Part shown: one piece after another, positions 4,778 through 40,854 of the stretch
Numbering within the stretch: the stretch's first letter is position 1
Layout: the number at the start of each line of letters is the position of its first letter
From: Ramlibacter sp.
GTDB taxonomy: Bacteria; Pseudomonadota; Gammaproteobacteria; Burkholderiales; Burkholderiaceae_C
Reading direction: 5' to 3'
Assembly: GCF_035554825.1 (NCBI RefSeq)
Contig: NZ_DATMHS010000103.1
Location: 8,377-72,376, forward strand
Length of the DNA stretch: 64,000 bases
Made by a program: the position numbers and the translations under genes
Notes under the pieces: generated by a model
What the model was told of the DNA's origin: nothing
The model's database searches: none
What the model saw: the letters and a program-made list of their open reading frames with translations, nothing else

Positions 4778-5230
4778 ATGAGCCATCCGACCGCCGGCCC
4801 CAGCCGACGCCTGTTCGCCGCGGCCTGCGCGGCGCTGGCCGCCGCCGCGCTGCCGCTGGGCGCCGCCCGGGCGCAGGCCGCCGGCAAGCCCAACCGGGTG
4901 GTGCTGCAGGTGAGCGACGCCGATCCGCAGAAATGGACGCTGGCGCTCAGCAACGCCTACAACGTGCAGAACGGCGTCGGCGCCGACGGCGTCGAGCTCG
5001 AGATCGTGGTCTACGGCCCGGGGATCGGCATGCTCAGGAACGGCTCGCCGGTCGCCGACCGCGTGGCCAGCGCGATGAAGTCGGGCATCGCCGTCGTCGC
5101 CTGCGAGAACACCATGACGGCGCAGAAGCTCACCAAGCGCGACATGCTGCCCGACATCGGGTACGTGCCGGCCGGCGTGGTGGAACTGATGAAACGCCAG
5201 CAGCAGGGCTGGGCCTACATCCGGCCCTGA
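4778..5230 (+). CDS. DsrE/DsrF-like family protein with a Tat-type signal peptide
   Basis: Internal ATG 4778 of the 3839..5230 frame. The product begins MSHPTAGPSRRLFAAACAALAAAALPLGAARAQA and continues NRVVLQVSDADPQKW...IAVVACENTM (DsrE-like fold signature). Preceded by AGGGAGA. Confidence 0.7.
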   Translation: MSHPTAGPSRRLFAAACAALAAAALPLGAARAQAAGKPNRVVLQVSDADPQKWTLALSNAYNVQNGVGADGVELEIVVYGPGIGMLRNGSPVADRVASAMKSGIAVVACENTMTAQKLTKRDMLPDIGYVPAGVVELMKRQQQGWAYIRP

Positions 5231-8104: not shown

Positions 8105-9839
8105 GGGGGAAGTAGTCCTGCACGCAGCGCACCGGATTGGGCGCCGCCTGGCCGAGGCCGCAGATCGACGCGTCGGCCATCACCTGGTTCAGGTCCGTCA
8201 GCGTACCGTTGTCCCACTGCGGCGCTTCCATCAGCAGCGCCGCCTTCGACGTGCCGACCCGGCACGGGGTGCATTGGCCGCAGCTCTCGTGCGCGAAGAA
8301 CCGCATCATGTTGAGCGCGGCGTCGCGCGCGCGGTCGTGCTGGCCCAGCACGATGATGGCGGCCGAGCCGATGAAGCAGCCGTGCGGCTGCAGCGTGTCG
8401 AAGTCGAGCGGCAGGTCGGCCAGCCGGGCCGGCAGGATGCCGCCCGACGCGCCGCCCGGCAGGTAGCCGTAGAGCTGGTGGCCGGGCGCCATGCCGCCGC
8501 AGTATTCGTCGATCAGCTGGCGCAGCGTGATCCCGGCCGGGGCGAGCTTGACGCCCGGCTGGGCGACGCGGCCGCTGACGCTGAAGGAGCGCAGGCCCTG
8601 CCGCCCGTTGCGTCCGGCGCCGGCGAACCACTCGGGGCCCCGCTCCAGGATGTCGCGCACCCAGAACAGCGTCTCGAAGTTGTGTTCCAGCGTCGGCCGG
8701 CCGAACAGGCCGACCTGGGCGACGTACGGCGGGCGCAGCCGCGGCTCGCCGCGCTTGCCTTCGATGCTCTCGATCATCGCGGACTCCTCGCCGCAGATGT
8801 AGGCGCCGGCGCCGCGCCGCAGCTCGATGCGCGGCAGCGGACACGGCGGGTCGGCCTGCAGCGCCGCGAGTTCCGCCTCGAGCAGCGCCCGGCAGGCGTG
8901 GTACTCGTCGCGCAGGTAGATGAACACCGCCTCGGTGCCGGCCACCTGCGCCGCGATCAGCATTCCCTCCAGGAACCGGTGCGGGTCGCGCTCCAGGTAG
9001 AAGCGGTCCTTGAAGGTGCCGGGCTCGCCTTCGTCGATGTTGACGGCCAGGTAGCGCGGCGCGGGCTGCTCGCCCACGATCCGCCACTTGCGCCCGGCCG
9101 GGAAGCCGGCGCCGCCCAGGCCCCGCAGCCCGGAGGCTTCCATCGCGCGCAGCACCCGGTCGGCATCGTCCTCGCAGTTGACGACGGCGGCGGCCGTCGC
9201 ATAGCCGCCCTGCTCGCGGTACGCCCGGTAGCCGACGAAGCCGGACGGCATCGCCGCGCGACCGCGTTCGCCAGCCGGCCGCTGCTGCTCGCCGGCGACC
9301 GCCTGCGCCAGCAGCTCGGGGGTCGCCTGGCCCACGGCGACCTGCCCGACGAGCGCCGCCGGCGCCTGCTCGCAGCGGCCGATGCACGGCGCGGCGATCA
9401 CGCGCACCGCACGGCCGACGATCTGCGGCAGCCGCTCCAGCAGCGCGCGCGCGCCGGCCAGCTCGCAGGACAGGCCGTCGCACACCCGCACCGTGAGCTC
9501 GGCGCCGGGTCGGTCGTCCGGCAACAGGTCGAAGTGGTGGTAGAAGCTCGCCACCTCCATCACCTCGGCCATCGGAATGTTCATCTCGCGCGCCAGCGCC
9601 ACCAGGTGCCGCTCGTGCAGCCCGTGCCAGCGGTCGTTGACGCGGTGGAGGTACTCGATCAGCAGGTCGCGCCGGTGGCCGCCGGCGGGCACCGGGCCGA
9701 TGAGGCTTCGCACTTCGGCCAGCGCGCCTTCCTGCGGCTGGCGGCCCTTGAGCTTGGCGGCGCGGCGCAGGCTGCGGCGCAACGCCTCGGCCGTCCCGAG
9801 CACGGTGGCGGGAGCATTCCCCATGAGTTCTCGATCCAA
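8094..9839 (-). CDS. Formate dehydrogenase beta subunit, fused NuoE-like (2Fe-2S) and NuoF-like (FMN/NAD/4Fe-4S) domains
   Basis: 581-aa ORF. NuoE-like part: VRVCDGLSCELAG..APCIGRCEQAP. NuoF-like part: GLRGLGGAGFPAGRKW, NIDEGEPGTFKDR, ESCGQCTPCR. The start could instead be the ATG at 9824. Confidence 0.9.
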   Translation of the reverse strand: MDRELMGNAPATVLGTAEALRRSLRRAAKLKGRQPQEGALAEVRSLIGPVPAGGHRRDLLIEYLHRVNDRWHGLHERHLVALAREMNIPMAEVMEVASFYHHFDLLPDDRPGAELTVRVCDGLSCELAGARALLERLPQIVGRAVRVIAAPCIGRCEQAPAALVGQVAVGQATPELLAQAVAGEQQRPAGERGRAAMPSGFVGYRAYREQGGYATAAAVVNCEDDADRVLRAMEASGLRGLGGAGFPAGRKWRIVGEQPAPRYLAVNIDEGEPGTFKDRFYLERDPHRFLEGMLIAAQVAGTEAVFIYLRDEYHACRALLEAELAALQADPPCPLPRIELRRGAGAYICGEESAMIESIEGKRGEPRLRPPYVAQVGLFGRPTLEHNFETLFWVRDILERGPEWFAGAGRNGRQGLRSFSVSGRVAQPGVKLAPAGITLRQLIDEYCGGMAPGHQLYGYLPGGASGGILPARLADLPLDFDTLQPHGCFIGSAAIIVLGQHDRARDAALNMMRFFAHESCGQCTPCRVGTSKAALLMEAPQWDNGTLTDLNQVMADASICGLGQAAPNPVRCVQDYFPHEI

Positions 9840-9878
9840 AAAAACGTAACAGCTGCGCGGTCGAGCGCGACCGCGCAG
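9835..9878 (-). terminator. Rho-independent terminator after the DASS transporter gene
   Basis: Perfect 11-bp stem ctgcgcggtcg / cgaccgcgcag with a 4-nt loop (9853-9878). On the minus strand it is followed by ctgttacgTTTTTTT. Confidence 0.7.
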
Positions 9879-9911
9879 AGCGCGCTGCTGTCCCGTTCGT
9901 TCACGACCTCG

Positions 9912-11383
9912 CTACAGGTATCCGAGCATATTCCACCACACCGCGCCGACCGCGACCAGGATCGCCAGATTGACGACGCTCATGACGGCGCCGGCGGCCC
10001 ACCACTCGTTGAGCGTGGCATAGCCGGAACCGAAGATGATCGGCGCGGTGCCGGTGCCGTAATGGGTCAGCGACATCATCAGCGACGAGGCGAACGCCAG
10101 GACCAGCGCGAACAGCATCGGCGGCGCGCCGAGCGCCACGCCGGCGGCGAAGAACGCCCCGAACATCGCGGTGATGTGGGCGGTGGTGCTGGCGAAGAAA
10201 TAGTGCGCGTAGAAATAGATCAGCACCAGGATCGCCGTCGCGCTGATCCAGCCCAGCCCGAGCTGGCCGATGCCCTGCCGGATGGTGGTCGACACCCAGC
10301 CGACCAGGCCCAGCTTGCCCAGGAAGGTGGCCATCATCACCAGGGCGGCGAACCAGACCAGCGTGTCCCAGGCGCTTTTCGCCTTCAGGATGTCGTCCCA
10401 GTCGAGCACGCCGGTGACCAGCAGCAGCGACAGGCCGATGAAGGCGGCGGTGGTGGCGTTGATCTCGAAGGCGGGGCCCAACAGCAGCGCGGGCACCTCG
10501 CCCACAGCAGCAGCATCAGCCCCAGGACGCCCAGCGTGATGTATTCGGAAGCCTTCACGGGCCCCAGCCGGGCCAGTTCGTTCTGGGCCAGTTCCTTGGC
10601 GTTGGGCGTGTTCTTGATCTCGGGCGGGAACAGCAAGTACAGCACCAGCGGCATCACCAGCAGCATGCACAGGGCCGGCAGCAGCGCCGCCAGCGCCCAC
10701 TGGCCCCACGTGATCCTGATGGCGGAGTTGGTGGCCTTGGCGACCAGGTCGACGATCAGCGGGTTGGGCGCGGTGGCCGTGATGAACATGGCCGACGTGA
10801 TCGGGTTGGTGTTGTAGTTGACCAGCGCCAGGTAGCGCCCGATCTTGCGGGCGGTCCCGAGTTCGGCGCTGGAGCCGAAGGCGTCGGCCACCGAGCGCAT
10901 GATCGGGTGGATGATGGCCCCGCCGCGGGCCGTGTTGCTCGGCGTCACCGGCGCGATCGCCACTTCCGACAGCACCAGGCCGTAGGCCACGCCGATCGTC
11001 TTGCGTCCGAACAGCGAGATGAAGTAGTAGCCGATGCGGGTGCCCAGCCCGGTCTTGCTCAGGGCGGCCGAGATCATCACCGCGATGGCGATCAGCCAGA
11101 TCAGCGCGTTGGAAAAGCCGCTCAGCGCATCGGCGATCGCGCCCTCGGGATTGTGCGGGCGCGTGACGCCGGTGAGCGCCACCAGCGAGATCGCGACGAT
11201 CGACAGGGCGCCGATCGGCATGGCCTTGCCGATGATCGCGGCGATGGTGCCGATGAACAGGGCCAGCAGATGCCAGGCCTCGGGACTGACCTTGGCGGGC
11301 ACCGGGATGACGAACCAGAACAGGAGGGCGATGCCGATGGCGATCGCGCTGGGAAGGGGCTTGGGGAGAGACTGCTTGAGCAT
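9912..11383 (-). pseudogene. DASS-family (divalent anion:Na+ symporter / 2-oxoglutarate-malate translocator-like) anion permease, interrupted by a single-base frameshift
   Basis: The N-terminal 294 codons read well in ORF 10385..11383 up to ...YITLGVLGLMLLLW. The C-terminal part reads well in ORF 9912..10709 from GEVPALLLGPAFEINATTAAFIGLSLLLVTGVLDWDDI... to the stop. The two frames meet at the C-run 10501-10503; one extra C (G in the sense strand) would give LLLWGEVPALLL. Confidence 0.8.
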
Positions 11384-11627
11384 GGCGTTCGACGCCTGCC
11401 GCCGGGCCGCGGTGCGGCCGTGACGGCGGCAGGCTTTGCAGGCTGCTGGAGCAATAGCTCCATAACCATGCAGTGATTTTACGAACGCCTCAGCGATGCA
11501 ACGAGTGCCGGGCCGGCCGACTTGCGCATCGTTTGACCTTCCTCATCTCGCCGGCGCAGGCGGCGCGCGCAAGCCGGCGCGCCCGGACGCAACCGTGCCC
11601 GCGCACGCCCCGGGCGCCGCGCCGGAT

Positions 11628-12719
11628 TCAGGTGCCCTTGGAGACCGTGATGGTGGGGAACTTGGAAGAGAAATCCTTGGCCTTGGCCGCGATCTTGATC
11701 GCCACCTGGCGTGCCACGGCCTTGTAGATCGCCGCCACCTCGCCGTCGGGCTCGGCCACCACGGTCGGCTTGCCGCTGTCGGCCTGCAGCCGGATCCTGA
11801 TGTCCAGCGGCAGCGCGCCCAGATAGTCCATGCCGTACTCGGCCGCCATCCGCTGGCCGCCGCCCTCGCCGAAGATGTGTTCGGCGTGGCCGCACTGGCT
11901 GCACACGTGCACCGCCATGTTCTCGACGATGCCCAGGATCGGCACGCCGACCTTCTCGAACATCTTGATGCCCTTCTTGGCGTCGAGCAGCGCGATGTCC
12001 TGCGGCGTCGTCACGATCACCGCGCCGGTCATCGGCACCCGCTGGGACAGCGTGAGCTGGATGTCGCCGGTGCCTGGCGGCATGTCGACGACGAGGTAAT
12101 CGAGGTCCTGCCAGTTGGTCTGGCGCAGCAGCTGCTCCAGGGCCTGGGTGGCCATCGGGCCGCGCCAGATCATCGCGTCGTCCGGGGCGACCAGAAAGCC
12201 GATCGACATCACCTGCACGCCGTAGTTCTCCAGCGGCTCCATGGTCTTGCCGTCGGCCGACTCCGGCCGCTGGTCGATCCCCATCATCATCGGCTGGCTG
12301 GGGCCGTAGATGTCGGCGTCCAGGATGCCCACGCGGGCGCCCTCGGCGGCCAGCGCCAGCGCCAGGTTCACCGCCATCGTGCTCTTGCCGACGCCGCCCT
12401 TGCCGGAGGCGACGGCGACGATGTTCTTGACGCCCGGCAGCAGTTGCACGCCGCGCTGGGCGGCGTGGGCCACGATCTTGCTGCCCAGGGTGGCCGAGAC
12501 GTTCCTGACGCCCGGCACGGCCTTGGCCGCATTCACCAGCGCCGTGCGCAGCGCCGGGATCTGGCTCTTGGCCGGATAGCCCAGCTCCACCTCGAACGAA
12601 ACGTCGCCCTCGTGCACCTGCAGGTTGCGCAGCGCCTTGGTGCTGACGAAATCCTTGCCGGTGTTGGGATCGATCACGGCCGAAAGGGCCTGGAGCAGCT
12701 GGTCTTGGGATGCGGACAT
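11628..12719 (-). CDS. apbC: Fe-S cluster carrier ATPase ApbC/Mrp
   Basis: Internal ATG 12717-12719 ([25 protein letters not shown]). P-loop [12 protein letters not shown]. CxxC motif (CSQCGH). Confidence 0.9.
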
Positions 12720-12857
12720 GGGTGGGGATTCCTCTGCGGCAAGTGTACCGACTCGATCCTGCTCCCCTCGCGATGTCCCCGCCGCGCGCAGGGCAGCCGC
12801 GGCCTGCGGCCGGCGCAAAGCGGTCGCCTAGAATTCCTGGTTCCCTGGAAGCCCACC

Positions 12858-14942
12858 ATGCCCGCACAGCGCAAGCTCTTCGTCACCACCGCCCTGCCGT
12901 ACGCCAACGGCAAGTTCCACATCGGCCACATCATGGAATACATCCAGGCCGACATCTGGGTGCGGCACCAGCGGATGCACGGGCACATGGTTCATTTCGT
13001 CGGCGCCGACGACGCCCATGGGGCGCCGATCATGATCGCCGCCGAAAAGGCCGGCAAGACACCGCAGGCCTTCGTCGCCGACATCGCCGCCGGCCGCCGC
13101 CAGTACCTGGACGGCTTCCACATCCAGTTCGACAACTGGCACTCCACCGACAGCGCCGAGAACACCGAGCTGGCGCAAGGCATCTACCGCACGCTGCGCG
13201 CCAACGGCCTGATCGCGACGCGCACCATCGAGCAGTTCTACGATCCGGTCAAGGGCATGTTCCTGCCGGACCGCTACATCAAGGGCGAGTGCCCCACCTG
13301 CCACGCGAAGGACCAGTACGGCGACTCGTGCGAGGTGTGCAGCAGCGTCTACGCGCCGACCGACCTGATCGAGCCCTACTCCACGCTGAGCGGCGCCCGG
13401 CCCGAGCTGCGCAGCTCCGAGCATTTCTTCTTCAAGCTCTCGGACCCGAAGGTGGTCGCCTTCCTCCAGGCCTGGACCCAGGACGGCAAGCTGCAGCCCG
13501 AAGTCGCCAAGAAGGCCAGCGAGTGGTTCGAGGCCGGCATGGCCGACTGGGACATCAGCCGCGACGCACCCTACTTCGGCATCGAGATCCCGGATGCGCC
13601 GGGCAAGTACTTCTACGTGTGGCTGGACGCGCCGATCGGCTACCTGGCCAGCCTGAAAAACCACTTCGACCAGGGCCAGGCCCAGAACCACTGGGACCCG
13701 GCCTCGCGCACCGACGCCTCGTTCGACGACTTCGTGGCCGACCCGGCGGTGGAGCAGGTGCACTTCATCGGCAAGGACATCGTGTACTTCCACACCCTGT
13801 TCTGGCCGGCGATGCTGCAGTTCTCGGGCCGCAAGACGCCCGACCAGATCAACGTGCACGGCTTCATCACCGTCAGTGGCGAGAAGATGAGCAAGAGCCG
13901 CGGCACCGGCATCGACCCGCTGAAGTACCTCTCGCTCGGCATGAACCCCGAGTGGCTGCGCTACTACATCGCCGCCAAGCTCAACAGCAAGGTCGAGGAC
14001 GTCGACTTCAACCCGGACGATTTCGTCGCCCGCGTCAACGCCGACCTGGTGGGCAAGTACGTCAACATCGCCAGCCGGGCGGCGAAGTTCGTGCCCGGCG
14101 GCAAGCTGGTCAAGAGCGATGTGGCCCGGCTCGCCCCGGCGCGCCGCGTCGAGGAGATCGGCAAGCTCTACGAAGCGCGCGAGTACGGCAAGGCGCTGCG
14201 CGAGATCATGGCCTTCGCCGACGAGATCAACCTGCGCTTCGACGGCGCCGCGCCCTGGAAGCTGGTGAAGGAAGGCCGCGGCGCCGAGGCGGCGCAGGTG
14301 TGCTCCGAATGCCTGGAGCTGTTCAAGGTGCTCACGGCCTGCCTCAAGCCCGTGCTGCCCGAACTCGCGCTGCACGCCGAAGCCTTCCTGCAGTGCCAGC
14401 CGCTGACCTGGGCCAACGCCGCCCTGCCCCTGGGCGAGGGCCACCAGATCGGCGAGTACAAGCACCTGATGCAGCGGGTCGACCCCAAGCAGATCGACGC
14501 CTTGTTCGAACCGCCCGCCGAAGCGGCCGCAGCGGCGCCGGAGGCGCCGGCCGCGCCCGCCACCGGCGGCCGCAGCGACCCGGGCGGCGAAGGGCTGGCC
14601 GCCACCATCAACATCGACGAGTTCGCCAAGGTGGACCTGCGGATCGCGAAGATCCTGCGCTGCGCACCGGTGGAGGGTTCGACCAAGTTGCTGCAGCTGG
14701 AGCTCGACATCGGCGAGACCTCGCCGCGCAACGTGTTCGCGGGAATCGCCTCGGCCTACGAGCCCCAGGAGCTGGTCGGCAAGTTCACGGTGATGGTCGC
14801 CAACCTGGCGCCGCGCAAGATGAAGTTCGGCATCAGCGAAGGGATGGTGCTGGCCGCCAGCCACGCCGACCAGAAAGCCAACCCCGGCATCTTCATCCTG
14901 CAGCCCTGGCCCGGCGCCAAGCCTGGCATGCGGGTGCGCTGA
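12858..14942 (+). CDS. metG: Methionine--tRNA ligase
   Basis: ATG 12858. Product begins [28 protein letters not shown] (HIGH motif). Also has KMSKSRG (KMSKS), a Zn knuckle [17 protein letters not shown], and a C-terminal tRNA-binding domain. Confidence 0.95.
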
Positions 14943-28529: not shown

Positions 28530-29947
<1,418 letters not shown>

Positions 29948-29951
<4 letters not shown>

Positions 29952-31765: not shown

Positions 31766-33208
31766 TCAGTTTTCCTTCTTCTCGTCCTTGCGCTCGACGA
31801 TCTGGGTCTTGCTCACCAGGACCGGGCGGCCCTTGAGCTGGTTGAGCGCCTGGACCAGCTGGAAGTCCTTGTCGCTGCCGAATTCCGGCATCTTGCGGTC
31901 GGCCACGGGCTTCTTGGCTTCCTCTTCGGCGCGCTTGCGCGCTTCCTCGCGGGCCTTCTCGCGCGCCGGGTCCCTGGCGGCGTCCTTGCCCTGGCCGGCC
32001 GTGAGATGGTGCTCGAGGTCGGCTTCGCGGGTGCGCAAGGCGGAGAACAGGTTGCCCTCCTCGGTCTCGTCGACCATGACGTCGGGCACGATGCCCTTGG
32101 CCTGGATCGACTTGCCCGTCGGCGTGTAGTAGCGCGCCGTCGTCAGCTTCAGGCCGGTGTCCGGGCCGAGCGGGCGCACCGTCTGCACCGAGCCCTTGCC
32201 GAAGGTCTGGCTGCCCAGCAGGGTCGCCCGCTTGTGGTCCTGCAGGGCGCCGGCGACGATCTCGCTGGCCGAGGCCGAACCCTCGTTGACCAGCACCACC
32301 AGCGGCACCGATTTCAGGGCCGCCGGCAGGCGGCGCAGCGGATCGGAGCCGGCCCGGCGCTGGTAGTACTCCGGCGCCGCCTTGTAGACGAACTTGCTCT
32401 CGGCCAGCTGGCCGTTGGTCGAGACCACGGTGACGTTCTCCGGCAGGAAGGCGGCGGAGATGGCCACGGCGGCGTCCAGCAGGCCGCCCGGGTCGTTGCG
32501 CAGGTCGAGCACCATGCCCTTCAGGTGGGGCTCGGCCTTGTAGATCTCCTCGACCTTGCGCACGAAGTCATCGACCGTGCGCTCCTGGAACTGCGACAGG
32601 CGGATCCAGCCGTAGCCCGGCTCGATGACCTTGCCCTTGACCGACTGGGTCTTGATCTCCTCCCGGGTGATGGTCGCCGGGAAGCTGCGGTTCTCGTCCT
32701 TGCGGAAGATGGTCAGCGTCACCTTGGTGCCGGGCTCGCCGCGCATGCGCTTGACGGCGTCGCTCAGGGACAGGCCCTTGACCACCGTGTCGTCGATCTT
32801 GGTGATCAGGTCGTTCTGCTTGAGGCCGGCGCGGTAGGCGGGCGAACCCTCGATCGGCGAGACCACCTTCACCAGCCCGTCTTCCTGCGAGATCTCGATG
32901 CCGACGCCGACGAAGCGGCCGGAGGTGCCTTCGCGGAATTCCTTGAAGGACTTCTTGTCGAAGTACTGCGAGTGGGGATCGAGGCTGGCGACCATCCCCG
33001 AGATGGCGTCGGTGATCAGCTTCTTCTCGTCGACCGGTTCGACGTAGTCGCTCTTGACCATGCCGAACACGGCGGCCAGCTGCTGCAGCTCCTCCAGCGG
33101 CAACGGCGCCAGCGAGCCACGGGCGACCGTCTGCAACGACACCGTCGTCAGCGCGCCGGCCAGGGCGCCCACGGAAATCCAGCCGGCGATCTTCAGTTTG
33201 TGGCTCAT
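31766..33208 (-). CDS. S41-family carboxy-terminal processing protease
   Basis: Internal ATG 33206-33208 (MSHKLKIAGWISVGALAG...). PDZ domain: GVGIEISQEDGLVKVVSPIEGSPAYRAGL. Catalytic region: LDLRNDPGGLL, GSASASEI, TFGKGSVQ. Confidence 0.9.
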   Translation of the reverse strand: MSHKLKIAGWISVGALAGALTTVSLQTVARGSLAPLPLEELQQLAAVFGMVKSDYVEPVDEKKLITDAISGMVASLDPHSQYFDKKSFKEFREGTSGRFVGVGIEISQEDGLVKVVSPIEGSPAYRAGLKQNDLITKIDDTVVKGLSLSDAVKRMRGEPGTKVTLTIFRKDENRSFPATITREEIKTQSVKGKVIEPGYGWIRLSQFQERTVDDFVRKVEEIYKAEPHLKGMVLDLRNDPGGLLDAAVAISAAFLPENVTVVSTNGQLAESKFVYKAAPEYYQRRAGSDPLRRLPAALKSVPLVVLVNEGSASASEIVAGALQDHKRATLLGSQTFGKGSVQTVRPLGPDTGLKLTTARYYTPTGKSIQAKGIVPDVMVDETEEGNLFSALRTREADLEHHLTAGQGKDAARDPAREKAREEARKRAEEEAKKPVADRKMPEFGSDKDFQLVQALNQLKGRPVLVSKTQIVERKDEKKEN

Positions 33209-33377
33209 AGCGGGGGAGTCCAGTCCTTCAGCGTTCGGAAAATATACACCTGAGAGGATGCTCTGACGCAATGGTTACTTGCGGGTTCCCCTCTTCTCGC
33301 GCGGATGTGCGAAAAGCTTTGTGTTTCCCCGACTTTATCCCGAGGCGGCCGGCCGCGCGCGCCGCCCGGACATGTCC

Positions 33378-34121
33378 TCAGGCCTTGCCCTGGCTGGCCA
33401 CGGCGGCCGCCGCCCTGGCCGCCGCCTCGGCGTCGCCCAGGTAATAGTGGCGCAGCGGGTTCAGGTTGCCATCGAGCTCGTACACCAGCGGAATCCCGTT
33501 CGGGATGTTCAGCCCGACGATGTCCTGGTCCGAGATCCGATCGAGGTATTTCACCAGGGCGCGGATCGAGTTGCCGTGGGCCGCCACCAGCACCCGGCGG
33601 CCGGAGGTGATGGCGGGCGCCATCGACTCGTTCCAGAACGGCAGCACCCGCGCCACCACGTCCTTCAGCGACTCGGTGAGCGGCACCTGCGCCGGCTGCA
33701 GGTCCGCGTAGCGCGGGTCGCCCCGCTCGCAGCGCGGATCCTCCGGCGTCAGGGCCGGCGGCGCGATGTCGTAGCTGCGGCGCCAGATCAGGACCTGCTC
33801 GTCGCCGAACTTGCGGGCCGTCTCCGCCTTGTTCAGGCCCTGCAGCGCACCGTAATGCCGCTCGTTCAGGCGCCAGGAGTGCGCCACCGGCAGCCAGGTC
33901 CGGTCCATCTCGTCCAGGCAGTGCCACAGGGTGCGGGTGGCGCGCTTCAGGACGCTGGTGTAACAGAGGTCGAACTCCCAGCCACCCTCCTTCAGCAGCC
34001 GTCCCGAGGTCTTGGCCTGCTCGATGCCGGTGGGCGTCAGGTCGACGTCGGTCCAGCCGGTGAAGCGGTTTTCCAGGTTCCAGGTCGATTCGCCGTGGCG
34101 GATCAGGACGAGCTTGTACAT
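33378..34121 (-). CDS. gpmA: 2,3-bisphosphoglycerate-dependent phosphoglycerate mutase
   Basis: 247 aa. Motifs: [18 protein letters not shown] and [10 protein letters not shown]. Confidence 0.95.
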
Positions 34122-34204
34122 GGGCAGTGGGCCTCGGGATGCGGTGCAAAACCCGGCATTTTAGAATCGCGGGTTCACCCGAACACCGCACTGCACAAGG
34201 AAAC

Positions 34205-34612
34205 ATGAAATTCATCATCGACAACTGGATGCTCATCTCGGTGGCACTGGTCTCCGGCGCCATGCTGGTGTGGCCGGCCATCCAGGGCTCGGCCGGGGGC
34301 GGACTCACGGCCGCCAACGCCGTCCAGCTCATCAACCGGGAGCGCGCGGTGGTGGTCGACGTCTGCTCGCCCGAGGAATTCGCCGGGGGCCATGTCGGCG
34401 GGGCCAGGAACGTACCGCTGGGCCAGCTGGAACAGCGCCTGCCGGAGGTCGTGAAGAACAAGACGGTGCCCCTGATCCTCGTGTGCGCCAGCGGCGCGCG
34501 CGCCAGCCGCGCCGCTGGCGTCGCCAAGAAACTGGGCTACGAGCAGGCCCAAGTCCTGGCCGGCGGGATGAAAGCCTGGAAAGAAGCTAACCTTCCGGTC
34601 GAGAAAGCCTGA
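34205..34612 (+). CDS. Membrane-anchored rhodanese-domain protein
   Basis: ATG 34205, preceded by AAGGAAA. N-terminal TM segment (MKFIIDNWMLISVALVSGAMLVW). Rhodanese active-site loop LVCASGARASRAA. Confidence 0.8.
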   Translation: MKFIIDNWMLISVALVSGAMLVWPAIQGSAGGGLTAANAVQLINRERAVVVDVCSPEEFAGGHVGGARNVPLGQLEQRLPEVVKNKTVPLILVCASGARASRAAGVAKKLGYEQAQVLAGGMKAWKEANLPVEKA

Positions 34613-34665
34613 GGGCCGGCGCACGACAGGCGTGCGCCCGGCACCCCGCCAGGCACAGGAATCCC

Positions 34666-34932
34666 ATGCAGCCCGTCAAGATGTACACCACGGCCGTTTG
34701 CCCGTTCTGCATTCGCGCCAAGCAGATCCTCAAGGCCCGCGGCGTCGAATCGATCGAAGAGGTCCGGGTCGACGCCAGCCCCGAGGAACGCATGAAGATG
34801 ATGGAGATCACCGGCCGCCGGACGGTGCCGCAGATCTTCATCGGCGACACCCACGTCGGCGGCTGCGACGACCTCATGGCGCTCGACAGCCAGGGCGGCC
34901 TGGTGCCGCTGCTGAACGGCGCTTCCAGCTGA
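34666..34932 (+). CDS. grxC: Glutaredoxin 3
   Basis: 88 aa. Motifs: YTTAVCPFCIRAK (CPFC) and TVPQIFIGDTHVGGCDDL. Confidence 0.92.
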   Translation: MQPVKMYTTAVCPFCIRAKQILKARGVESIEEVRVDASPEERMKMMEITGRRTVPQIFIGDTHVGGCDDLMALDSQGGLVPLLNGASS

Positions 34933-34985
34933 GGCGGCCCGTCGGGCGGGCGGCGGCCCGCGGCCTGAGATAATCGCTCCTTTCA

Positions 34986-35014
34986 GCCCGCCAGGCGGCC
35001 GCCGGCGGGCTTTT
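34986..35014 (+). terminator. Possible hairpin/attenuator between grxC and secB
   Basis: Stem gcccgcc ... ggcgggc followed by TTTT. secB starts only 27 nt later, so read-through is likely. Confidence 0.35.
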
Positions 35015-35040
35015 CGCTCGCATTGACAGGAAACAAAGCC

Positions 35041-35505
35041 ATGGCCGACCAGCAAGCCGATCCCGTGTTCCAGATCCAGCGCGTCTACCTCAAGGAAGCG
35101 TCGCTGGAGCAGCCCAATTCCCCGGCCATCCTGCTGGAGCAGGAGCAGCCGACCGTCGACATCCAGCTCGGCGTGGAAGCCGCGCCGGCCGCCGACGGCG
35201 TCTTCGAGGTGGCGGTGACCGCCACCGTCACGACCAAGATCAAGGACAAGACGGTGTTCCTGGTCGAGGTCAAGCAGGCCGGCATCTTCGAGATCCGCAA
35301 CATCCCGGCCGAGCAGATGAGCGCGATCATGGGCATCGCCTGCCCGCAGATCGTCTACCCCTACCTGCGCAGCAACGTGTCCGACATCGTGACGCGCGCC
35401 GGCTTCCCGCCCGTGCACCTGGCCGAGATCAACTTCCAGGCCATGTACGAGCAGCAGCAGGCCCAGCAGGCCGAGCAGCCGTCCGGCATCATCACCACCG
35501 CCTGA
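35041..35505 (+). CDS. secB: Protein-export chaperone SecB
   Basis: ATG 35041 is preferred over the track's upstream TTG 35023. Product begins [28 protein letters not shown]. Also has [10 protein letters not shown] and [24 protein letters not shown]. Confidence 0.9.
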
Positions 35506-35533
35506 ACGGGCGGCGGCCGGCGCGGGCAGGACC

Positions 35534-36535
35534 ATGAAGATCGTGGTGTTCGGCGCCGGCGCCTGGGGCACGGCCCTGGCCGTGTCGGCCGCCAGCCGGC
35601 ATCAGGTGACGCTCTGGGCGCGCGACGCCGCCCAGGCCGACGCGATCGGGGCGCGGCGCGAGAACCGGCGCTACCTGCCGGGCATCGCGCTGCCGCCGGC
35701 ACTGGCCATCACCTCCGGGGCGCCGTCGGACGTGCCGAGCCTCGCCGTGGCCGCCGATCTGGCGGTCGTCGCCACGCCGATGGCGGGCCTGCGTGAACTG
35801 CTCGCGCTGCTGCGGCAGCACCCGGGCCCCGTTGCCTGGCTGTGCAAGGGCTTCGAGGCGCCGGCCGGCGGCGGCGACGGCCTGCTCGGCCATGAGGTCA
35901 AGGCCCAGGTCGCGCCCGACCTGCGCGCCGGCGTGCTCAGCGGCCCCAGCTTCGCCATCGAGGTGGCGCGCGGCCAGCCGACGGCGCTGGTCGCCGCCAG
36001 CGACGATCCCGGCGTGCGCACCGCGCTGGTGGCGGCGTTCCACAGCCCGCAGCTGCGGGTGTATGCCAACGACGACGTCGCCGGGGTCGAGATCGGCGGT
36101 GCCGTGAAGAACGTGCTGGCGATCGCCACCGGCCTGTGCGACGGGCTCGAGCTGGGCCTGAACGCCCGCGCCGCGCTGATCACCCGCGGCCTGGCCGAAA
36201 TCACCCGGCTCGGGGTCGCGCTCGGCGCCCGCCCGGAAACCTTCATGGGCCTGTCGGGCCTGGGCGACCTGGTGCTCACCGCCACCGGGGACCTGAGCCG
36301 CAACCGCCGCGTCGGCCTGCTGCTGGCCCAGGGCAAGTCCCTGGCCGAAGCGGTGGCCTCGCTGGGCCACGTCGCCGAAGGCGTCTATTGCGCCAGGGCG
36401 GTGGTGCGGCGCGCCGCCCACGCCGGCGTCGACATGCCGATCGCCCGCGCCGTGGTGGCGCTGCTCGATGGCGAGCTGAAGCCCTCGGGCGCGGTCGCGG
36501 CCCTGATGGGACGCGACCCCGTCGCCGAGGGCTGA
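35534..36535 (+). CDS. gpsA: NAD(P)H-dependent glycerol-3-phosphate dehydrogenase
   Basis: 333 aa. Motifs: [43 protein letters not shown]. Confidence 0.93.
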
Positions 36536-36575
36536 GCCCGCCGGGCGGCGCCTCCCCAGGGCCGCCCCAACTCCG

Positions 36576-37238
36576 TCATGCCTGCGCCGGGTGCTGCGCC
36601 ACCGGCGGCGCCGGCTCGTCTTCGTCGACATCCTCGTAGCCGGTGATCATCGCCTTGATGTGGGCGGTGGGCGTGTGCCCCAGGGTGGCCAGGTAGGGGT
36701 GGATGAACATGTAGAAGACGAAGAAGATGAAGATCAGCACGTGCACGGTGTCGACCACGCGGATGCCGCCGACCAGGTCGATCAGGTGCGAGAAGCGCTT
36801 GACGTCCCACAGCAGCAGCCCGGTGGCGAACTGCAGCGGCAGCAGGAACAGCATCAGGATCTGGTAGAGCGTGCGCTGCAGCGGGTTGAACTTGTGGTAC
36901 GGGTCGATCCGGTGCGGATTGGGCTCGCCGTGGAACATGCCCCAGCCGTAGTACTGCATCTGCGCCAGCGAAGCCTTGGTCAGCTTGATGATGTTGAACT
37001 CCGGGTGGTAGGCCATGTTCCGCGGCGAGAACAGGTAGAACAGCAGCCAGAGCAGGAAGTTGGCGATCAGCGCGAACGCCACCCAGTTGTGCACCACCAC
37101 GGCGGTGCGGAACGACATCAGCTGGAACAGGTCGAGGTACCTGATCTGCACGCCGGTGACGATCAGCACGATGAACAGCAGCGCATTGGCCCAGTGCCAG
37201 ATCCGCACCGGCAGGGGGTTGACGTACAGCTTGCCCAT
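36576..37238 (-). CDS. Four-helix b-type cytochrome (HydC/FdnI/PhsC-like, Ni_hydr_CYTB family)
   Basis: Internal ATG 37236-37238 (MGKLYVNPLPVRIWHWANALLFIVLIVTG...), 220 aa. His residues fall in predicted TM1, TM2 and TM4 (RIWHW, VVVHNW, DTVHVLIFIFFVFYMFIHPY). The start is 2 nt after the stop of the nine-heme cytochrome gene. Confidence 0.85.
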   Translation of the reverse strand: MGKLYVNPLPVRIWHWANALLFIVLIVTGVQIRYLDLFQLMSFRTAVVVHNWVAFALIANFLLWLLFYLFSPRNMAYHPEFNIIKLTKASLAQMQYYGWGMFHGEPNPHRIDPYHKFNPLQRTLYQILMLFLLPLQFATGLLLWDVKRFSHLIDLVGGIRVVDTVHVLIFIFFVFYMFIHPYLATLGHTPTAHIKAMITGYEDVDEDEPAPPVAQHPAQA

Positions 37239-37240
37239 GA

Positions 37241-38593
37241 TCAGCTCCTCTCCTTCGATGGTCCGTCGGCGTCCGCCGGCCGGGCCCGCCGCCGGCGGAA
37301 CATCAGCTGCATCACCAAGTGGGCGCCCGGAATGGCGATGCCGGCGGCCAGGGCCATCAGCAGCAGGACGTCCAGCAGCTTGATGCGCGTGCTGCCGATC
37401 GCGTAGAAGCCGCCGACCGCGCCGATCGACTCGAGCGAGGTCAGCACACCCTGGCTCGCGTCGTGCCGCAGCGGCCGGCCGTCGGCGCCGGCCATGCTCA
37501 CGGTGACGCTCTGGAACGAGGCAGCGCCCTGGCGGTGGCAGGTGTCGCAGTCCTTCAGCGCGAGGCCCTTCGCGGCGAGCCGGTGGGCCTGCACGCCGGT
37601 CTGCACTTCCAGCCGGCCGCGCAGCACGGTCCTGGCGGCCGCGCCTTCCTGGTTGAACTCCTGCAACAGACTCCACAGCGCGCGCGCGTCCAGTCCCGCC
37701 GGCGTGCGACCCGCCTCGTCGGCCAGTTTCACGAACTTGGGCACGCCGACGCTGCCGGCCTGCTGCGGTGCCCCACCCTCGTAGACGCGCAGGTTGACGC
37801 GGCGCGTGGTTCCCGGCGAATGGCAGGCCGGGCAGGAGATCGCCTCGAGGTGGCGCTGCGTGTTGGGCAGCCACTGCGCGTGGCTGGTCGCCACTTCCTT
37901 GTGGCAGGACAGGCAGCCGGTCCTGAGATGGTCGCCGAGCGCCGCCGCCGCCACGTTGTGCGTGCGGTGGCAGTCCTTGCAGACCAGGGCCTCGTCGCCG
38001 CCCTGGCCGTGCACGCTGTCGGCAAAGGCCCGGGTGATCGCGCCGTGGCACGCCTGGCAGGGCGCGGCCTGCGCCTGCCCGGCCCCCCGCTCCTTGGCCG
38101 AACGGGTGGCATGCGGGTCGTGGCAGTCCGTGCACAGCGGCGCCTTCTCGCTGCCGGCCTTCACCAGGGCCGCGTGGACGCTGTCCTCGTACTGCTTCAT
38201 CGTCTTCTTGTGGCAGTCGCGGCAGGTTTCCATCTGCCCGAGCGCGAACGCGCGCCGGCTGGCGACCGGCCTGCTGCCGCCCTTGCCGTGCGTCGCGGCG
38301 TCGAGGTCGGAGTGGCAGCCTTCGCAGCCGTCCGCCGCGTGCACCGACGATGCGAAGGCCCTGGGCGCGATGGCCAGCGACAGCCGCTCGCCGTTGCCCA
38401 GGGTGCGGTCCAGTTCCGGCCTGGCATGGCATGCGAGACAAGCCTTGTCCTGGCTGGAGAGGACGTCCCTGGCCGGGGCGGCCTGCGCCGCCAGGCCGGG
38501 AAGGGACACGACCAGCGCCAGGACCACCGCCACGAAGGCCACGGCCCGGCGCCGGCCGTCGGCCGTGCCGGGGAAGGTGCCGGAGGTTGTCAT
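37241..38593 (-). CDS. Nine-heme c-type cytochrome with N-terminal signal peptide and C-terminal TM anchor
   Basis: Internal ATG 38591-38593 (MTTSGTFPGTADGRRRAVAFVAVVLALVVSLPGLAAQA). Nine CxxCH motifs: CLACH, CEGCH, CRDCH, CTDCH, CQACH, CKDCH, CLSCH, CPACH, CDTCH. C-terminal helix LLDVLLLMALAAGIAIPGAHLV. Confidence 0.9.
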   Translation of the reverse strand: MTTSGTFPGTADGRRRAVAFVAVVLALVVSLPGLAAQAAPARDVLSSQDKACLACHARPELDRTLGNGERLSLAIAPRAFASSVHAADGCEGCHSDLDAATHGKGGSRPVASRRAFALGQMETCRDCHKKTMKQYEDSVHAALVKAGSEKAPLCTDCHDPHATRSAKERGAGQAQAAPCQACHGAITRAFADSVHGQGGDEALVCKDCHRTHNVAAAALGDHLRTGCLSCHKEVATSHAQWLPNTQRHLEAISCPACHSPGTTRRVNLRVYEGGAPQQAGSVGVPKFVKLADEAGRTPAGLDARALWSLLQEFNQEGAAARTVLRGRLEVQTGVQAHRLAAKGLALKDCDTCHRQGAASFQSVTVSMAGADGRPLRHDASQGVLTSLESIGAVGGFYAIGSTRIKLLDVLLLMALAAGIAIPGAHLVMQLMFRRRRARPADADGPSKERS

Positions 38594-38633
38594 GCCGTCC
38601 TCGCTCGAGCGTTCGGGCCCGGCACCTGCTCCG

Positions 38634-39359
38634 TCACGACTTCGCGGCTGCGGCGCCAGCCGGGGCCCGGGCGCCGGTCCACACCAGCATCGCGAGCCCC
38701 ACGAAAGGATAGGCGATGACGTAGCCGAGTCCAACGAACGGCGCGCCGAACAGCCTGAGCATGAAGCCGGCGAAGGCCAGGCCTTCGCGCACCCGCGGCG
38801 ACGCCAGCGCCGCCTTGCCGCCGATCCAGGCCAGCATGCCGAGGCCGACGAACGGCAGCAGCACGGCGTACAGCAAACCGACGAACGGTGCCGACAGGAA
38901 CAGCAGCATGTTGACGAACGTGCCCCGCTGCGGCGGTGCTTCGGCCGGCACGGCCGGGCTTGCCGCGGGCGCGGCGGCCGGCGCGACCGGCGCGGGCTGC
39001 AGCGCCTTGGCCGTGCTCGCCTCGATCATCTCGGGCGAGAGCGGCTTGTGCAGGAACTCGGATACGCCGGCGGCGCGGGCGCGTTCCTCGCTGGTCTGGC
39101 TGCCGTAGCCCGTCACGATGACGACGGGCGTCCACGGCTGCCGTGCCTTCACGCGTTCGGCGACCTCGAGCCCGTTCATGCCGGGCATGCGCAGGTCGGT
39201 GAAGACCACGTCGTAGGTTTCGGCCTGGAGCTTTTGCAGCGCGTCGTAGCCGTCCTCGGCCGTGACGACGATGTAGCCCTTGCCGGACAGAACACGGTTG
39301 AAGCTCTTGCCAACCACCGGGTCGTCATCGACGACCAATACCTTGCGCAGTGCACTCAT
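38634..39359 (-). CDS. Receiver-domain protein fused to a C-terminal membrane module with duplicated PFVGL motifs
   Basis: Internal ATG 39357-39359 (MSALRKVLVVDDDPVVGKSF...), 241 aa. Acceptor Asp in VVFTDLRMPG (D55); LHKPL. After an Ala/Pro linker come two similar hydrophobic units: SAPFVGLLYAVLLPFVGLGMLAWIG and GAPFVGLGYVIAYPFVGLAMLVWTG. Confidence 0.85.
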   Translation of the reverse strand: MSALRKVLVVDDDPVVGKSFNRVLSGKGYIVVTAEDGYDALQKLQAETYDVVFTDLRMPGMNGLEVAERVKARQPWTPVVIVTGYGSQTSEERARAAGVSEFLHKPLSPEMIEASTAKALQPAPVAPAAAPAASPAVPAEAPPQRGTFVNMLLFLSAPFVGLLYAVLLPFVGLGMLAWIGGKAALASPRVREGLAFAGFMLRLFGAPFVGLGYVIAYPFVGLAMLVWTGARAPAGAAAAKS

Positions 39360-39787
39360 GATGGACTCCTTTGAAATTCGGGCTGATGGGGGCCGGCGAC
39401 GCTGTGCAGGGCCCAGCACTTGTGCCGGAGCGCCGCGGTCGATGCTTCGATCACCTGGTCGGGACCGAGCGGCTTGGCGAGATAGTCGTAGGCGCCGAGG
39501 GCGACGGCTTCCTTGGCGGACTCGATGGTGGGATCGCCGGTGACGATGATCACCTCGCTGGCCGGCCACCGCTGCTTGAGCGCGCGCAGCACCGTCATGC
39601 CGTCGACGTCCGGCATGCGCAGGTCGAGCAGCACCACGTCGGCCGGGTCGTCCTGCATCGCCTGGGCGGCCTGGGCCCCGCCCTCGACCGACTTCACCTG
39701 GCAGTGCGCCGAGTCGAGGATCCGCGTGAAGCTGCGGCGCACCACTTCTTCGTCGTCGACGATGAGGATCTTGGCCTTGTGGTTCAT
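39356..39787 (-). CDS. Single-domain (CheY-like) response regulator
   Basis: 143 aa. Motifs: ILIVDDEEVV, VVLLDLRMPDVDG, IIVTG, LAKPL. 4-nt overlap (ATGA) with the next gene. Confidence 0.9.
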   Translation of the reverse strand: MNHKAKILIVDDEEVVRRSFTRILDSAHCQVKSVEGGAQAAQAMQDDPADVVLLDLRMPDVDGMTVLRALKQRWPASEVIIVTGDPTIESAKEAVALGAYDYLAKPLGPDQVIEASTAALRHKCWALHSVAGPHQPEFQRSPS

Positions 39788-39822
39788 GGTGTCCGCCTGG
39801 TCTTCCCTATGGCTGGCTCAAA

Positions 39823-39837
39823 GCATCAGCCGTGCCA
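39823..39837 (-). promoter_or_regulatory. Sigma-54 (-24/-12) promoter of the receiver/cytochrome operon
   Basis: The minus strand reads TGGCACGGCTGATGC(TT), against the consensus TGGCAC-N5-TTGCW (one mismatch). The GC of the -12 element is 36 nt upstream of ATG 39787. Confidence 0.7.
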
Positions 39838-39880
39838 GGCTCGCGCGGCTTCGGGATTTCGCTTGCGTGGCAACGACTTG

Positions 39881-39997
39881 CGCATCGGAGCGCGGGCGCG
39901 GGCCGGGCGCCGCGGCGGGCGCGAAGTACATCCGCGCCATGCAGCCGGCCCGGCCCGCGCGGGGAATCCTTCGGCCAATCAACGACTTGCGTCATCG
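39881..39997. promoter_or_regulatory. Two copies of a direct repeat caacgacttgcg(N0-1)catcg, candidate upstream activator sites
   Basis: An exact 12-mer, caacgacttgcg, occurs at 39881-39892 and 39980-39991, 99 bp apart. The copies lie 44-55 and 143-154 nt upstream of the -24 element. Confidence 0.45.
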
Positions 39998-40089
39998 CCG
40001 CCGGCGCGGCGCGGCCTATACACCGGGCCATGCCGCGGCGGCCTCCTGCCACGCGACGGCGCGGGCGAAGGTTGGCCGACAATGGCGCC

Positions 40090-40854
40090 ATGACGGACGA
40101 CCAGCTGTTGCGGTACTCGCGCCACATCCTGCTCGAGGAAGTGGGCGTCGAAGGGCAGGAGCGCCTGCTGGCGGGCCACGCGCTCGTGATCGGCGCCGGC
40201 GGGCTCGGCTCGCCGGTGGCGCTCTACCTCGGCACCGCCGGTGTCGGGCGGATCACGCTCGTCGACAACGACCTGGTGGACCTGACCAACCTGCAGCGTC
40301 AGATCGCGCACAACCTGGCGCGCGTGGGCCGGCCCAAGACCGAATCGGCGCGCGAGGCCATCGCGGCGATCAATCCGGAGCCGCGGGTCGAGACCGTCAC
40401 GCAACGCGCCGACGACGCGCTGCTGGCGCGGCTGGTGCCGGCGGCGGATGTGGTGATCGACTGCTCCGACAACTTCCATACGCGTCACGCGATCAATGCC
40501 GCCTGTGTGCGGCACGCCAAGCCGCTGGTGTCGGGCGCCGCGATCCGCTTCGACGGGCAGGTCACCGTCTACGACACGCGCGACCCGCAGTCCCCCTGCT
40601 ACGCCTGCCTGTTCGCGCCGGCGGACGAATTCGAGGAAACGCGCTGCGCCACCATGGGCGTCTTCGCGCCATTGGTGGGCATCGTGGGCGCCGTGCAGGC
40701 CGCCGAAGCGCTCAAGCTCCTGAGCGGCGCGGGCACCTCGCTGGCCGGTCGGCTGCAGATGCTCGACGCGCGCCACATGGAGTGGCACGAGGTGCGCGTG
40801 CCGCGCAACATGGAGTGCCCCGTGTGCCGCGGCCGCGGGCTCGCGGCCCGCTAG
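40090..40854 (+). CDS. moeB: Molybdopterin-synthase adenylyltransferase
   Basis: ATG 40090. Product begins MTDDQLLRYSRHILLEEVGVEGQERL. Also has VIGAGGLGSPVALYLGTAGVG, DLTNLQRQ, and the CYACLF...CPVC zinc site. Confidence 0.9.
   Translation: MTDDQLLRYSRHILLEEVGVEGQERLLAGHALVIGAGGLGSPVALYLGTAGVGRITLVDNDLVDLTNLQRQIAHNLARVGRPKTESAREAIAAINPEPRVETVTQRADDALLARLVPAADVVIDCSDNFHTRHAINAACVRHAKPLVSGAAIRFDGQVTVYDTRDPQSPCYACLFAPADEFEETRCATMGVFAPLVGIVGAVQAAEALKLLSGAGTSLAGRLQMLDARHMEWHEVRVPRNMECPVCRGRGLAAR

Follow-up and report, generated by a model that had tools for sequence, protein, structure and literature searches.

A pair of cytochrome genes was analyzed in a 64,000-nucleotide stretch of DNA from Ramlibacter sp. 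(NCBI RefSeq assembly GCF_035554825.1, contig NZ_DATMHS010000103.1, forward strand, positions 8,377 to 72,376). This whole stretch is referred to as the window, and positions are counted from its first letter. The pair encodes a c-type cytochrome, which bears nine heme motifs, and a four-helix cytochrome b. It belongs to a module of six genes, all on the minus strand: two phospho-receivers, the cbcA-like and cbcB-like cytochrome genes, a heme-c sensor kinase and a BccR-like activator (Table 1). The pair and its regulators very probably represent the betaproteobacterial version of the CbcBA/BccR system of Geobacter sulfurreducens, that is, an inducible inner-membrane bc-type cytochrome which links the quinone pool and the periplasm.

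The cytochrome genes and their operon

The cytochrome c gene encodes 450 amino acids (aa) and ends in a TGA codon at 37243..37241. Only the two nucleotides "tc" separate this stop from the ATG of the cytochrome b gene, which encodes 220 aa. The cytochrome c has an N-terminal signal-like hydrophobic segment (residues 17-35), exactly nine CxxCH motifs spread over about 365 residues and one C-terminal transmembrane (TM) segment (residues 409-427). A first-pass annotation, made from the DNA letters alone, had described a 450-aa protein with a signal peptide, nine CxxCH motifs and a C-terminal TM helix, whose stop codon lies 2 nt before the cytochrome b start, and translation, TM prediction and the sequence agree with this description. 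The same annotation had placed the pair between moeB on one side and gpsA, secB and grxC on the other, with no catalytic partner nearby. The flanking genes are indeed moeB/ThiF and gpsA, secB and grxC, and neither a molybdoenzyme nor a hydrogenase gene was found at a distance of up to about 15 kb from the pair.

Between gpsA and the cytochrome b gene, which are convergent, a gap of 40 nt (36536-36575) contains a GC-rich inverted repeat, GGGGCGGCC...GGCGCCGCCC, which may serve as a terminator for both genes. This repeat was not reported by a consensus scan of positions 36400-40200 because no T-run follows it. The scan gave a single terminator-like site, which lies inside the cytochrome c gene and is within chance expectation, and it gave no sigma-70 promoter.

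The operon opens with the two receiver genes, and the start of the membrane receiver overlaps the stop of the receiver gene upstream by 4 nt. In the membrane receiver, two repeated hydrophobic hairpins (APFVGL..LPFVGLGMLAW) come after a canonical receiver domain. Both receivers retain D11, D12, D55, T83 and K105, the full set of phospho-acceptor residues. Related loci were collected in a genome scan with one genome per species (alignment A2), and taxonomy and synteny were taken from the best 80 of at least 327 genomes. In the membrane receivers of these relatives, the five phospho-acceptor residues and the Pro/Gly residues of the hairpins are at least 95% conserved. The number of hairpins varies, with two in the window and one in the Rhodoferax clade (locus L034, 9290-9874), and locus L005 has an extra 136-aa gene (9480-9890) that consists of hairpins only and has no receiver domain.

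The sigma-54 element TGGCACGGCTGATGCT begins 50 nt upstream of the ATG of the first receiver, and in 64 of 66 related loci the same element is placed 48-62 nt upstream of the first-receiver orthologue. This conservation supports the assignment of a sigma-54 promoter from sequence. Further upstream, the imperfect palindrome, which reads GTGCATG-N6-ATGTAC in the aligned upstream regions, is a candidate binding site of the BccR-like activator. It is flanked by the two copies of CAAGTCGTTG(ATT), the reverse complement of which fits what we take to be the integration host factor (IHF) consensus, WATCAANNNNTTR; these copies are candidate IHF sites. The receivers and the sigma-54 promoter that the first-pass annotation had assigned to the pair were thus borne out by the Pfam Response_reg matches (about 1e-29) and by the conserved -24/-12 element.

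Table 1. Features of the six-gene module and its promoter region in the window (HTH, helix-turn-helix)
Feature	Position	Strand	Basis
Imperfect palindrome CTGCATG-N6-ATGTAC	39926..39944	-	Block conserved across 14 aligned upstream regions (A3)
Two copies of CAAGTCGTTG(ATT)	39989..39974 and 39880..39865	-	Conserved blocks in A3
Sigma-54 -24/-12 element TGGCACGGCTGATGCT	39822..39837	-	Sequence; conserved position in relatives
Stand-alone receiver, 143 aa, first operon gene	39356..39787	-	Pfam Response_reg, E 1.1e-29
Membrane-anchored response regulator	38634..39359	-	Pfam Response_reg, E 2.6e-29; hydrophobic segments
CbcA-like nine-heme c-type cytochrome	37241..38593	-	Translation, TM segments, conservation, blastp, profile against PDB
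CbcB-like four-helix cytochrome b	36576..37238	-	Pfam, NCBIfam, blastp, His conservation, AlphaFold2 model
Sensor histidine kinase, 543 aa	29948..31579	-	Pfam, TM segments, heme motif conservation, blastp
BccR-like sigma-54-dependent response regulator, 473 aa (receiver, AAA+, HTH)	28530..29951	-	Open reading frame, blastp

Relationship to the Geobacter CbcBA (Cbc5) system

All four core proteins, namely the cytochrome c, the cytochrome b, the kinase and the activator, match one Geobacter cbc5 locus, L087. The cytochrome c is 24.9% identical to CbcA over 366 aa (blastp, E 9e-26), in an alignment that spans residues 87-436 and reaches the anchor helix and its His. The cytochrome b is 37.6% identical to CbcB over 205 of its 220 aa (E 3e-47), the kinase is 39.8% identical to a GSU0599-like kinase over 523 aa (E 5e-138), and for the activator and BccR the identity is 52.9% over 461 aa (E 1e-177). 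Locus L087 begins with the kinase and a divergent sigma-54 activator, followed by proteins of 80 aa, 130 aa (receiver fold) and 77 aa. The cytochrome c comes next, and after it a 218-aa Ni_hydr_CYTB protein, a 329-aa multiheme cytochrome c (CbcC, which has been described as a dodecaheme protein), a HAMP protein and a protein of 176 aa. The same layout has been published for the bccR and cbc5 region, GSU0590-0598, and the kinase upstream of bccR in L087 is taken to be GSU0599.

In G. sulfurreducens, CbcBA (Cbc5) is encoded by GSU0594/GSU0593 and BccR by GSU0598 (Joshi, Chan & Bond 2021). These authors listed several traits of the CbcBA family: individual genes for the c and the b subunit, with c first, a four-TM b subunit which is usually annotated as "thiosulfate reductase-like," a His ligand of a b heme that comes from the C-terminal helix of CbcA, as in [NiFe] hydrogenases, and a regulated sigma-54 operon beside a BccR-like regulator. 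All of the listed traits are seen in the window module. The same paper reported cbcB-cbcA gene fusions in some lineages, which fit with the fusions of 650-798 aa found among the relatives here. It named phyla other than Betaproteobacteria for CbcBA, and it did not discuss the kinase next to bccR.

The nine motifs of the cytochrome c are not a product of chance. Nine CxxCH motifs are present in all 81 orthologues extracted from related loci, and these motifs, nine further (distal) His residues and His425 of the TM helix are all 98-100% conserved. Since nine further His residues are conserved and no Met is, the hemes are probably bis-His ligated. His425, in the anchor helix, is invariant across betaproteobacterial, Nitrospirota-type and Geobacter sequences. 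In addition, a heme-free insert of about 90 aa between hemes 8 and 9 is shared with CbcA. A search of PDB sequences with the cytochrome c returned one chain, 28pb_A, which is labelled "Cytochrome c" and has 278 aa and seven CxxCH motifs. The profile of the cytochrome c family matches this chain with E 2.1e-27 in two collinear blocks, which pair hemes 1-2 and 5-9 of the window protein with hemes 1-2 and 3-7 of 28pb_A. Thus, hemes 3-4 of the window protein are an insertion. The CbcA of L087, a 349-aa protein on Geobacter-type contigs, has 97% identity to chain 28pb_A, which by this identity would be CbcA itself. The number of hemes varies within the CbcA-like family, with 7, 9 or more in relatives. 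A Foldseek search of PDB with an AlphaFold2 model of the c subunit (predicted local distance difference test, pLDDT, 82) gave nothing meaningful, with all E > 1. Multiheme folds have little secondary structure, and the fold library runs to 2026-04-08 and apparently does not include 28pb.

The first-pass annotation had interpreted the pair as a CbcL-like module split into two genes. CbcL (Cbc1, GSU0274) is a single polypeptide with six TM helices and nine hemes within residues 30-279, and the window pair was set apart from it by means of the published descriptions of CbcL. A split CbcL homologue would account for the nine CxxCH motifs, for a cytochrome b that is broadly HydC/FdnI-like and has conserved His residues in TM1, TM2 and TM4, and for the natural fusions of 650-798 aa, whose His pattern resembles that described for CbcL. 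However, all four core proteins match the CbcBA locus, which is itself naturally divided into two genes, and Joshi et al. (2021) reported that the b-type domains of CbcBA and CbcL have no sequence homology. The nine hemes of CbcL are held within 250 residues and those of the window protein in about 365. The c subunit is collinear with the seven-heme CbcA, including the heme-free insert, and differs from it by the insertion of hemes 3-4, so the heme count it shares with CbcL is best regarded as a coincidence. The fusions match the cbcB-cbcA fusions which had already been described. Lastly, CbcL is expressed constitutively (Joshi et al. 2021), whereas the window operon has a conserved inducible sigma-54 promoter. 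A CbcL homologue divided into two genes is therefore very improbable. The general proposal of the first-pass annotation, a membrane bc module that links the quinone pool to a periplasmic multiheme chain, stands without the assignment to CbcL.

The cytochrome b is a four-helix protein with His residues in TM1, TM2 and TM4, as had been noted from the sequence. These candidate heme ligands, His15 (TM1), His50 (TM2) and the TM4 pair His166 and His180, which are 14 residues apart, are invariant in 79 sequences, and four TM segments are predicted. The first-pass annotation had proposed a search with the Ni_hydr_CYTB profile, and the protein matches this family (PF01292) above the curated cutoff (E 2.7e-24, 86.3 bits; cutoff 30.1). 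The top NCBIfam match is PhsC (NF011582; E 5.4e-33, 114.6 bits) and the second is hydrogenase cytochrome b (score 68); both fall under their cutoffs of 204 and 121.5. An AlphaFold2 model (pLDDT 81) has a single genuine PDB match, the E. coli hydrogenase-1 cytochrome b HyaC (6g94; probability 1.00, TM-score 0.52/0.66, 16% identity in the structural alignment). HyaC surfaced in the structural search only, and phmmer found no match to the cytochrome b among PDB sequences. Membership in PhsC of thiosulfate reductase was considered and rejected: the score of 114.6 bits is well short of 204, and genes for the molybdopterin and FeS subunits were not found nearby or in relatives.

The kinase has a periplasmic domain (about residues 31-190) between two TM helices, followed by HAMP, HisKA and HATPase domains. 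This periplasmic domain contains a CxxCH motif (C113, C116, H117) and a CxxxxCH motif (C156, C161, H162). In a set of 63 sequences that takes in the Geobacter kinase and CbcD, both motifs are conserved at 97-100%. No Pfam match and no PDB sequence match was found for the sensor domain. Judged by its sequence, the window kinase is the orthologue of the kinase that adjoins bccR in Geobacter. CbcD of Geobacter is paralogous to the sensor domain but has no kinase part (29% identity, E 1e-38), and the L087 regions related to this domain lie at 3283-4890 and 11003-11854.

These observations bear on the explanation that the bc complex and the membrane receiver form a redox-sensing unit for the two-component system and carry no bulk respiratory current. 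Signalling proteins account for four of the six genes in the module, and one of them, a membrane-anchored receiver, is universally encoded together with the cytochromes. The window contains no proteins that would accept or donate electrons downstream, and the kinase-less CbcD is encoded in the same Geobacter cluster. Against this, a chain of nine hemes with a diheme b subunit would be costly for sensing alone, and the kinase already carries a conserved heme-binding sensor domain of its own, so a second sensor is not needed. A purely sensory role is thus improbable.

Distribution and gene order among Betaproteobacteria

Members of the CbcA/CbcB-like family are encoded by at least 327 genomes at the species level, of which the best 80 are all from Betaproteobacteria. 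The genera among these 80 include Ramlibacter, Piscinibacter, Noviherbaspirillum, Rhodoferax, Polaromonas, Sulfuritalea and Sterolibacterium. R. lithotrophicus and R. alkalitolerans are among the Ramlibacter carriers, and a metagenome-assembled genome (MAG) labelled R. ferrireducens is among the Rhodoferax carriers. The module is therefore common in the lineage, where the first-pass annotation had expected it to be unusual. That annotation also knew of no characterized betaproteobacterial example, a statement that needs to be qualified by MtoC and MtrH, the fused betaproteobacterial CbcL homologues which have already been reported and whose genes lie in mtoAB/mtrAB porin-cytochrome clusters. 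Literature searches found no report of CbcBA in Betaproteobacteria, although such a report may still exist.

The cytochrome c gene is followed by a separate cytochrome b gene in 76 of the best 80 loci. The first receiver is present in 61 and the membrane receiver in 59 of the 65 loci with upstream sequence. Among the 63 loci with enough downstream sequence, the activator, together with the kinase, is convergent with the cytochrome b gene and lies within 2.5 kb of it in 54, and in six others the two regulators are found elsewhere in the locus. For example, L005, with a cytochrome c that is about 43% identical, has the order receiver, membrane receiver, cytochrome c and cytochrome b, then a convergent activator and kinase. 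The activator and kinase genes, which overlap by 4 nt in the window, are divergent in Geobacter, convergent with the operon in most betaproteobacterial relatives and displaced in the window, where they lie 5 kb from the cytochrome operon.

R. lithotrophicus (L008) and L012 have the same arrangement as the window, with the block gpsA-secB-grxC-rhodanese-gpmA-ctpA (window 31766-36535) between the cytochrome b and the kinase. In L026, the cytochrome b is directly adjoined by the kinase and activator, and the same housekeeping block lies beyond these two. Comparison with L026 suggests that the segment from the activator to gpsA was inverted within the Ramlibacter lineage, in which case the housekeeping setting of the pair would be secondary.

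In some genomes (L018, L015 and L013), the four-gene operon occurs a second time, again with a sigma-54 element of its own. In L018 (8765-11876, on a second contig of R. lithotrophicus) and in L015, this copy consists of a receiver, a membrane receiver with one hairpin, the cytochrome c and the cytochrome b. L018 is the only one of these loci with long flanks, and no kinase or activator is found near it.

Natural fusions of the cytochrome c and cytochrome b were found with lengths of 650-798 aa. In the fused forms, helices 1 to 3 carry one His each and helix 5 carries two. One of these, a 650-aa fusion with nine CxxCH motifs in a Gammaproteobacteria MAG (GCA_017999615.1, locus L003, 8581-13289), is flanked by a 449-aa NapC/NirT-like cytochrome and a 433-aa rhodanese-domain protein, and it has an OmpR-type two-component pair in place of the BccR-like regulator. 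This context gives a hint that the fused form is used differently, possibly in connection with sulfur. A group of proteins of about 720 aa (P0412 and relatives), with many CxxCH motifs fused to an FdnI-like b domain, was set aside as weak matches from a different b-subfamily.

Another explanation for the pair is that it anchors a catalytic enzyme in the membrane and transfers electrons for it, as a PhsC/HydC-like subunit with a heme wire would; the genes of this enzyme would lie elsewhere in the genome. The candidates for this enzyme would be a thiosulfate, polysulfide or tetrathionate reductase, or a hydrogenase. The NCBIfam ranking of PhsC first and hydrogenase cytochrome b second, the structural match to hydrogenase-1 cytochrome b, and the rhodanese-domain protein and NapC-like cytochrome beside the fused relative in L003 are what such an explanation would predict. 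However, the PhsC score is well under the cutoff, and no reductase, hydrogenase or molybdoenzyme recurs as a neighbor in the 80 loci, which were inspected with up to 10 kb of flanking sequence. The first-pass annotation had named orthologues consistently placed beside a known reductase or dehydrogenase as evidence that would count against its proposal, and no consistent placement beside a reductase was found in these loci. The homologous Geobacter complex also works without an enzyme of this kind. Thus, an undetected catalytic partner is quite improbable.

The sole recurrent non-core neighbor in the 80 loci, the others being housekeeping genes, is a monoheme cytochrome c of about 110 aa, which is present in 31 of them and which likewise argues against a catalytic partner. 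Examples are found in L034 (7963-8346, minus strand), L024 (13190-13525, plus strand) and L029 (11927-12262, plus strand). This periplasmic protein is c551-like around the heme site (CxKCHAIDK..KKxxSYKKIAxKYKGK), and EEEHK replaces the Met region of c551. It could be a soluble redox partner of the module; no copy of it was found in the 64-kb window.

Elsewhere in the window, a long open frame of about 1158 codons (11466-14939, plus strand) has a single CxxCH motif and a GC content at third codon positions (GC3) of 0.84. It overlaps a minus-strand frame at 11628-12827 with a GC3 of 0.93, and because of this higher value part of the plus-strand frame may be non-coding.

Proposed working and comparison with known systems

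The module is likely a redox-induced electron link between the quinone and the periplasm. Genetic work in Geobacter has shown that cbcBA is needed for electron export below -0.21 V and that BccR is needed for induction as the potential falls. Electrons there flow from menaquinol to the periplasm at very low potential, and CbcA has been reported at -279 mV. In the window module, the kinase would sense the periplasmic redox state through c-type heme(s) bound at its CxxCH and CxxxxCH motifs, and it would phosphorylate the BccR-like activator, a step suggested by gene linkage and by the Geobacter genetics. The activator would then bind the palindrome, with bending of the DNA at the putative IHF sites, and the sigma-54 promoter would open. 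The transcript would encode the two phospho-receivers, the nine-heme CbcA-like protein and the CbcB-like cytochrome b. The b subunit would hold two hemes b in its four helices, through His15/His180 and His50/His166, and the C-terminal helix of the c subunit, with His425, may join these helices as the fifth of a membrane module, in the way that the small-subunit anchor of [NiFe] hydrogenases joins HydC/HyaC. Electrons would pass between a quinone site, the two b hemes, the nine bis-His c hemes and soluble periplasmic carriers. The receivers, which would be made only after induction and one of which would be held at the membrane, most likely provide feedback as a sink for phosphoryl groups of the kinase, or they gate the complex.

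Several points weigh against a simple identification of the module with the Geobacter system. First, CbcA has seven hemes, whereas the window protein has nine and is only about 25% identical to it, and the PDB entry of 28pb_A is itself labelled only "Cytochrome c" and would be CbcA by sequence identity. Secondly, the accessory genes of Geobacter encode two small hypothetical membrane proteins and an apparently degenerate receiver, whereas those of the window encode two canonical receivers. The hairpin region has no significant similarity to the Geobacter accessory proteins (GSU0597-, GSU0596- and GSU3489-like), and the receiver has a weak generic receiver match to them only. Third, the CbcC, CbcD and CbcE genes of the Geobacter cluster are absent here, and no periplasmic or outer-membrane cytochrome partner was found in the 64-kb window. 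With the kinase and activator at a distance of 5 kb, the regulatory link in the window rests on synteny in relatives. In addition, no expression or biochemical data on betaproteobacterial members were found in the literature. Lastly, the hosts differ. Geobacter belongs to the menaquinone-using Desulfuromonadota, whereas the Betaproteobacteria are presumed to use ubiquinone. Comamonadaceae generally use ubiquinone, and on this general knowledge the window host is probably a ubiquinone user as well. Bis-His multiheme domains usually have low potentials, so the oxidation of ubiquinol by these hemes would be uphill, and the Geobacter function is not simply transferable.

Since the host probably uses ubiquinone, an uptake of electrons from low-potential donors in the periplasm, with ubiquinone as the acceptor, is no less plausible than export. 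Flow in this direction would be favorable and, with this fold, energy-conserving. In its full form, this proposal is a CbcBA-like complex that runs in reverse in Betaproteobacteria which are largely aerobic or facultative and presumably rely on ubiquinone. Low-potential periplasmic donors, which might be small cytochromes in reduced form, complexes of Fe(II), or reduced humics or shuttles, would pass electrons through the nine c hemes and two b hemes to ubiquinone, with energy conserved by a redox loop of the HydC/FdnI type. The periplasmic heme-c sensor kinase would switch the system on, and the membrane-anchored phospho-receiver would dock on the complex and act as a phosphorylation-gated respiratory valve. 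We know of no quinone-linked cytochrome for which gating by phosphorylation has been described. The joint proposal of reversed flow, a heme-kinase switch and a receiver-gated valve is speculative, and we consider it unlikely as a whole.

The CbcBA/BccR assignment has consequences for the use of these genes as markers. The complete module of cbcBA, bccR and kinase genes occurs in hundreds of betaproteobacterial species, for example in Ramlibacter, Rhodoferax, Polaromonas, Piscinibacter, Sulfuritalea and Noviherbaspirillum, and it puts in question the value of cbcBA as a marker of metal reduction. To our knowledge, most of the carrier genera are not known as metal reducers. Either the cbcBA marker is unspecific, or the soil and freshwater carriers have an unrecognized, redox-induced exchange of electrons with the periplasm and beyond. 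The kinase, with c-heme motifs conserved from Geobacter to Betaproteobacteria, is a likely sensor for the "redox-potential sensing" that was inferred in Geobacter. The betaproteobacterial hosts can be cultured aerobically, which would make the regulation and the role of the membrane receiver easier to study than in Geobacter.

Among known systems, CbcBA shares many individual features with the window module. Both have two genes in the order c then b, a c subunit with a conserved His in its C-terminal TM helix and a four-TM b subunit of PF01292 and the "thiosulfate-reductase-like" kind. In both, the sigma-54 operon is opened by small accessory genes, including one for a receiver-fold protein, and is linked to an NtrC-type activator and a kinase with periplasmic CxxCH and CxxxxCH motifs. 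CbcL likewise has nine CxxCH motifs, bis-His c hemes and a diheme b membrane domain that links the quinone pool and the periplasm, but it differs in its single polypeptide, in the compactness of its heme domain and in its constitutive expression. Unlike mtoC and mtrH, the window locus has no porin-cytochrome cluster. The b subunit has the four-helix PF01292 fold of HyaC (E. coli) and HydC (Wolinella), with His ligands on helices 1, 2 and 4. As in [NiFe] hydrogenases, a partner protein provides a C-terminal TM helix, a parallel also drawn by Joshi et al. (2021), but this partner is a multiheme cytochrome and not a small subunit, and sequence similarity is low. PhsC is the top curated family for the b subunit, and public pipelines give this name to relatives; the PhsC systems differ in that the protein scores below the equivalog cutoff and PhsA/PhsB genes are found neither here nor in the 80 related loci. 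The CbcBA/BccR system in Geobacter and CbcL homologues in Betaproteobacteria were already known. What is new relative to the Geobacter system is a module without CbcC, CbcD and CbcE that has nine c hemes and two canonical receivers, one of them with one or two membrane hairpins, in hosts of a different physiology.

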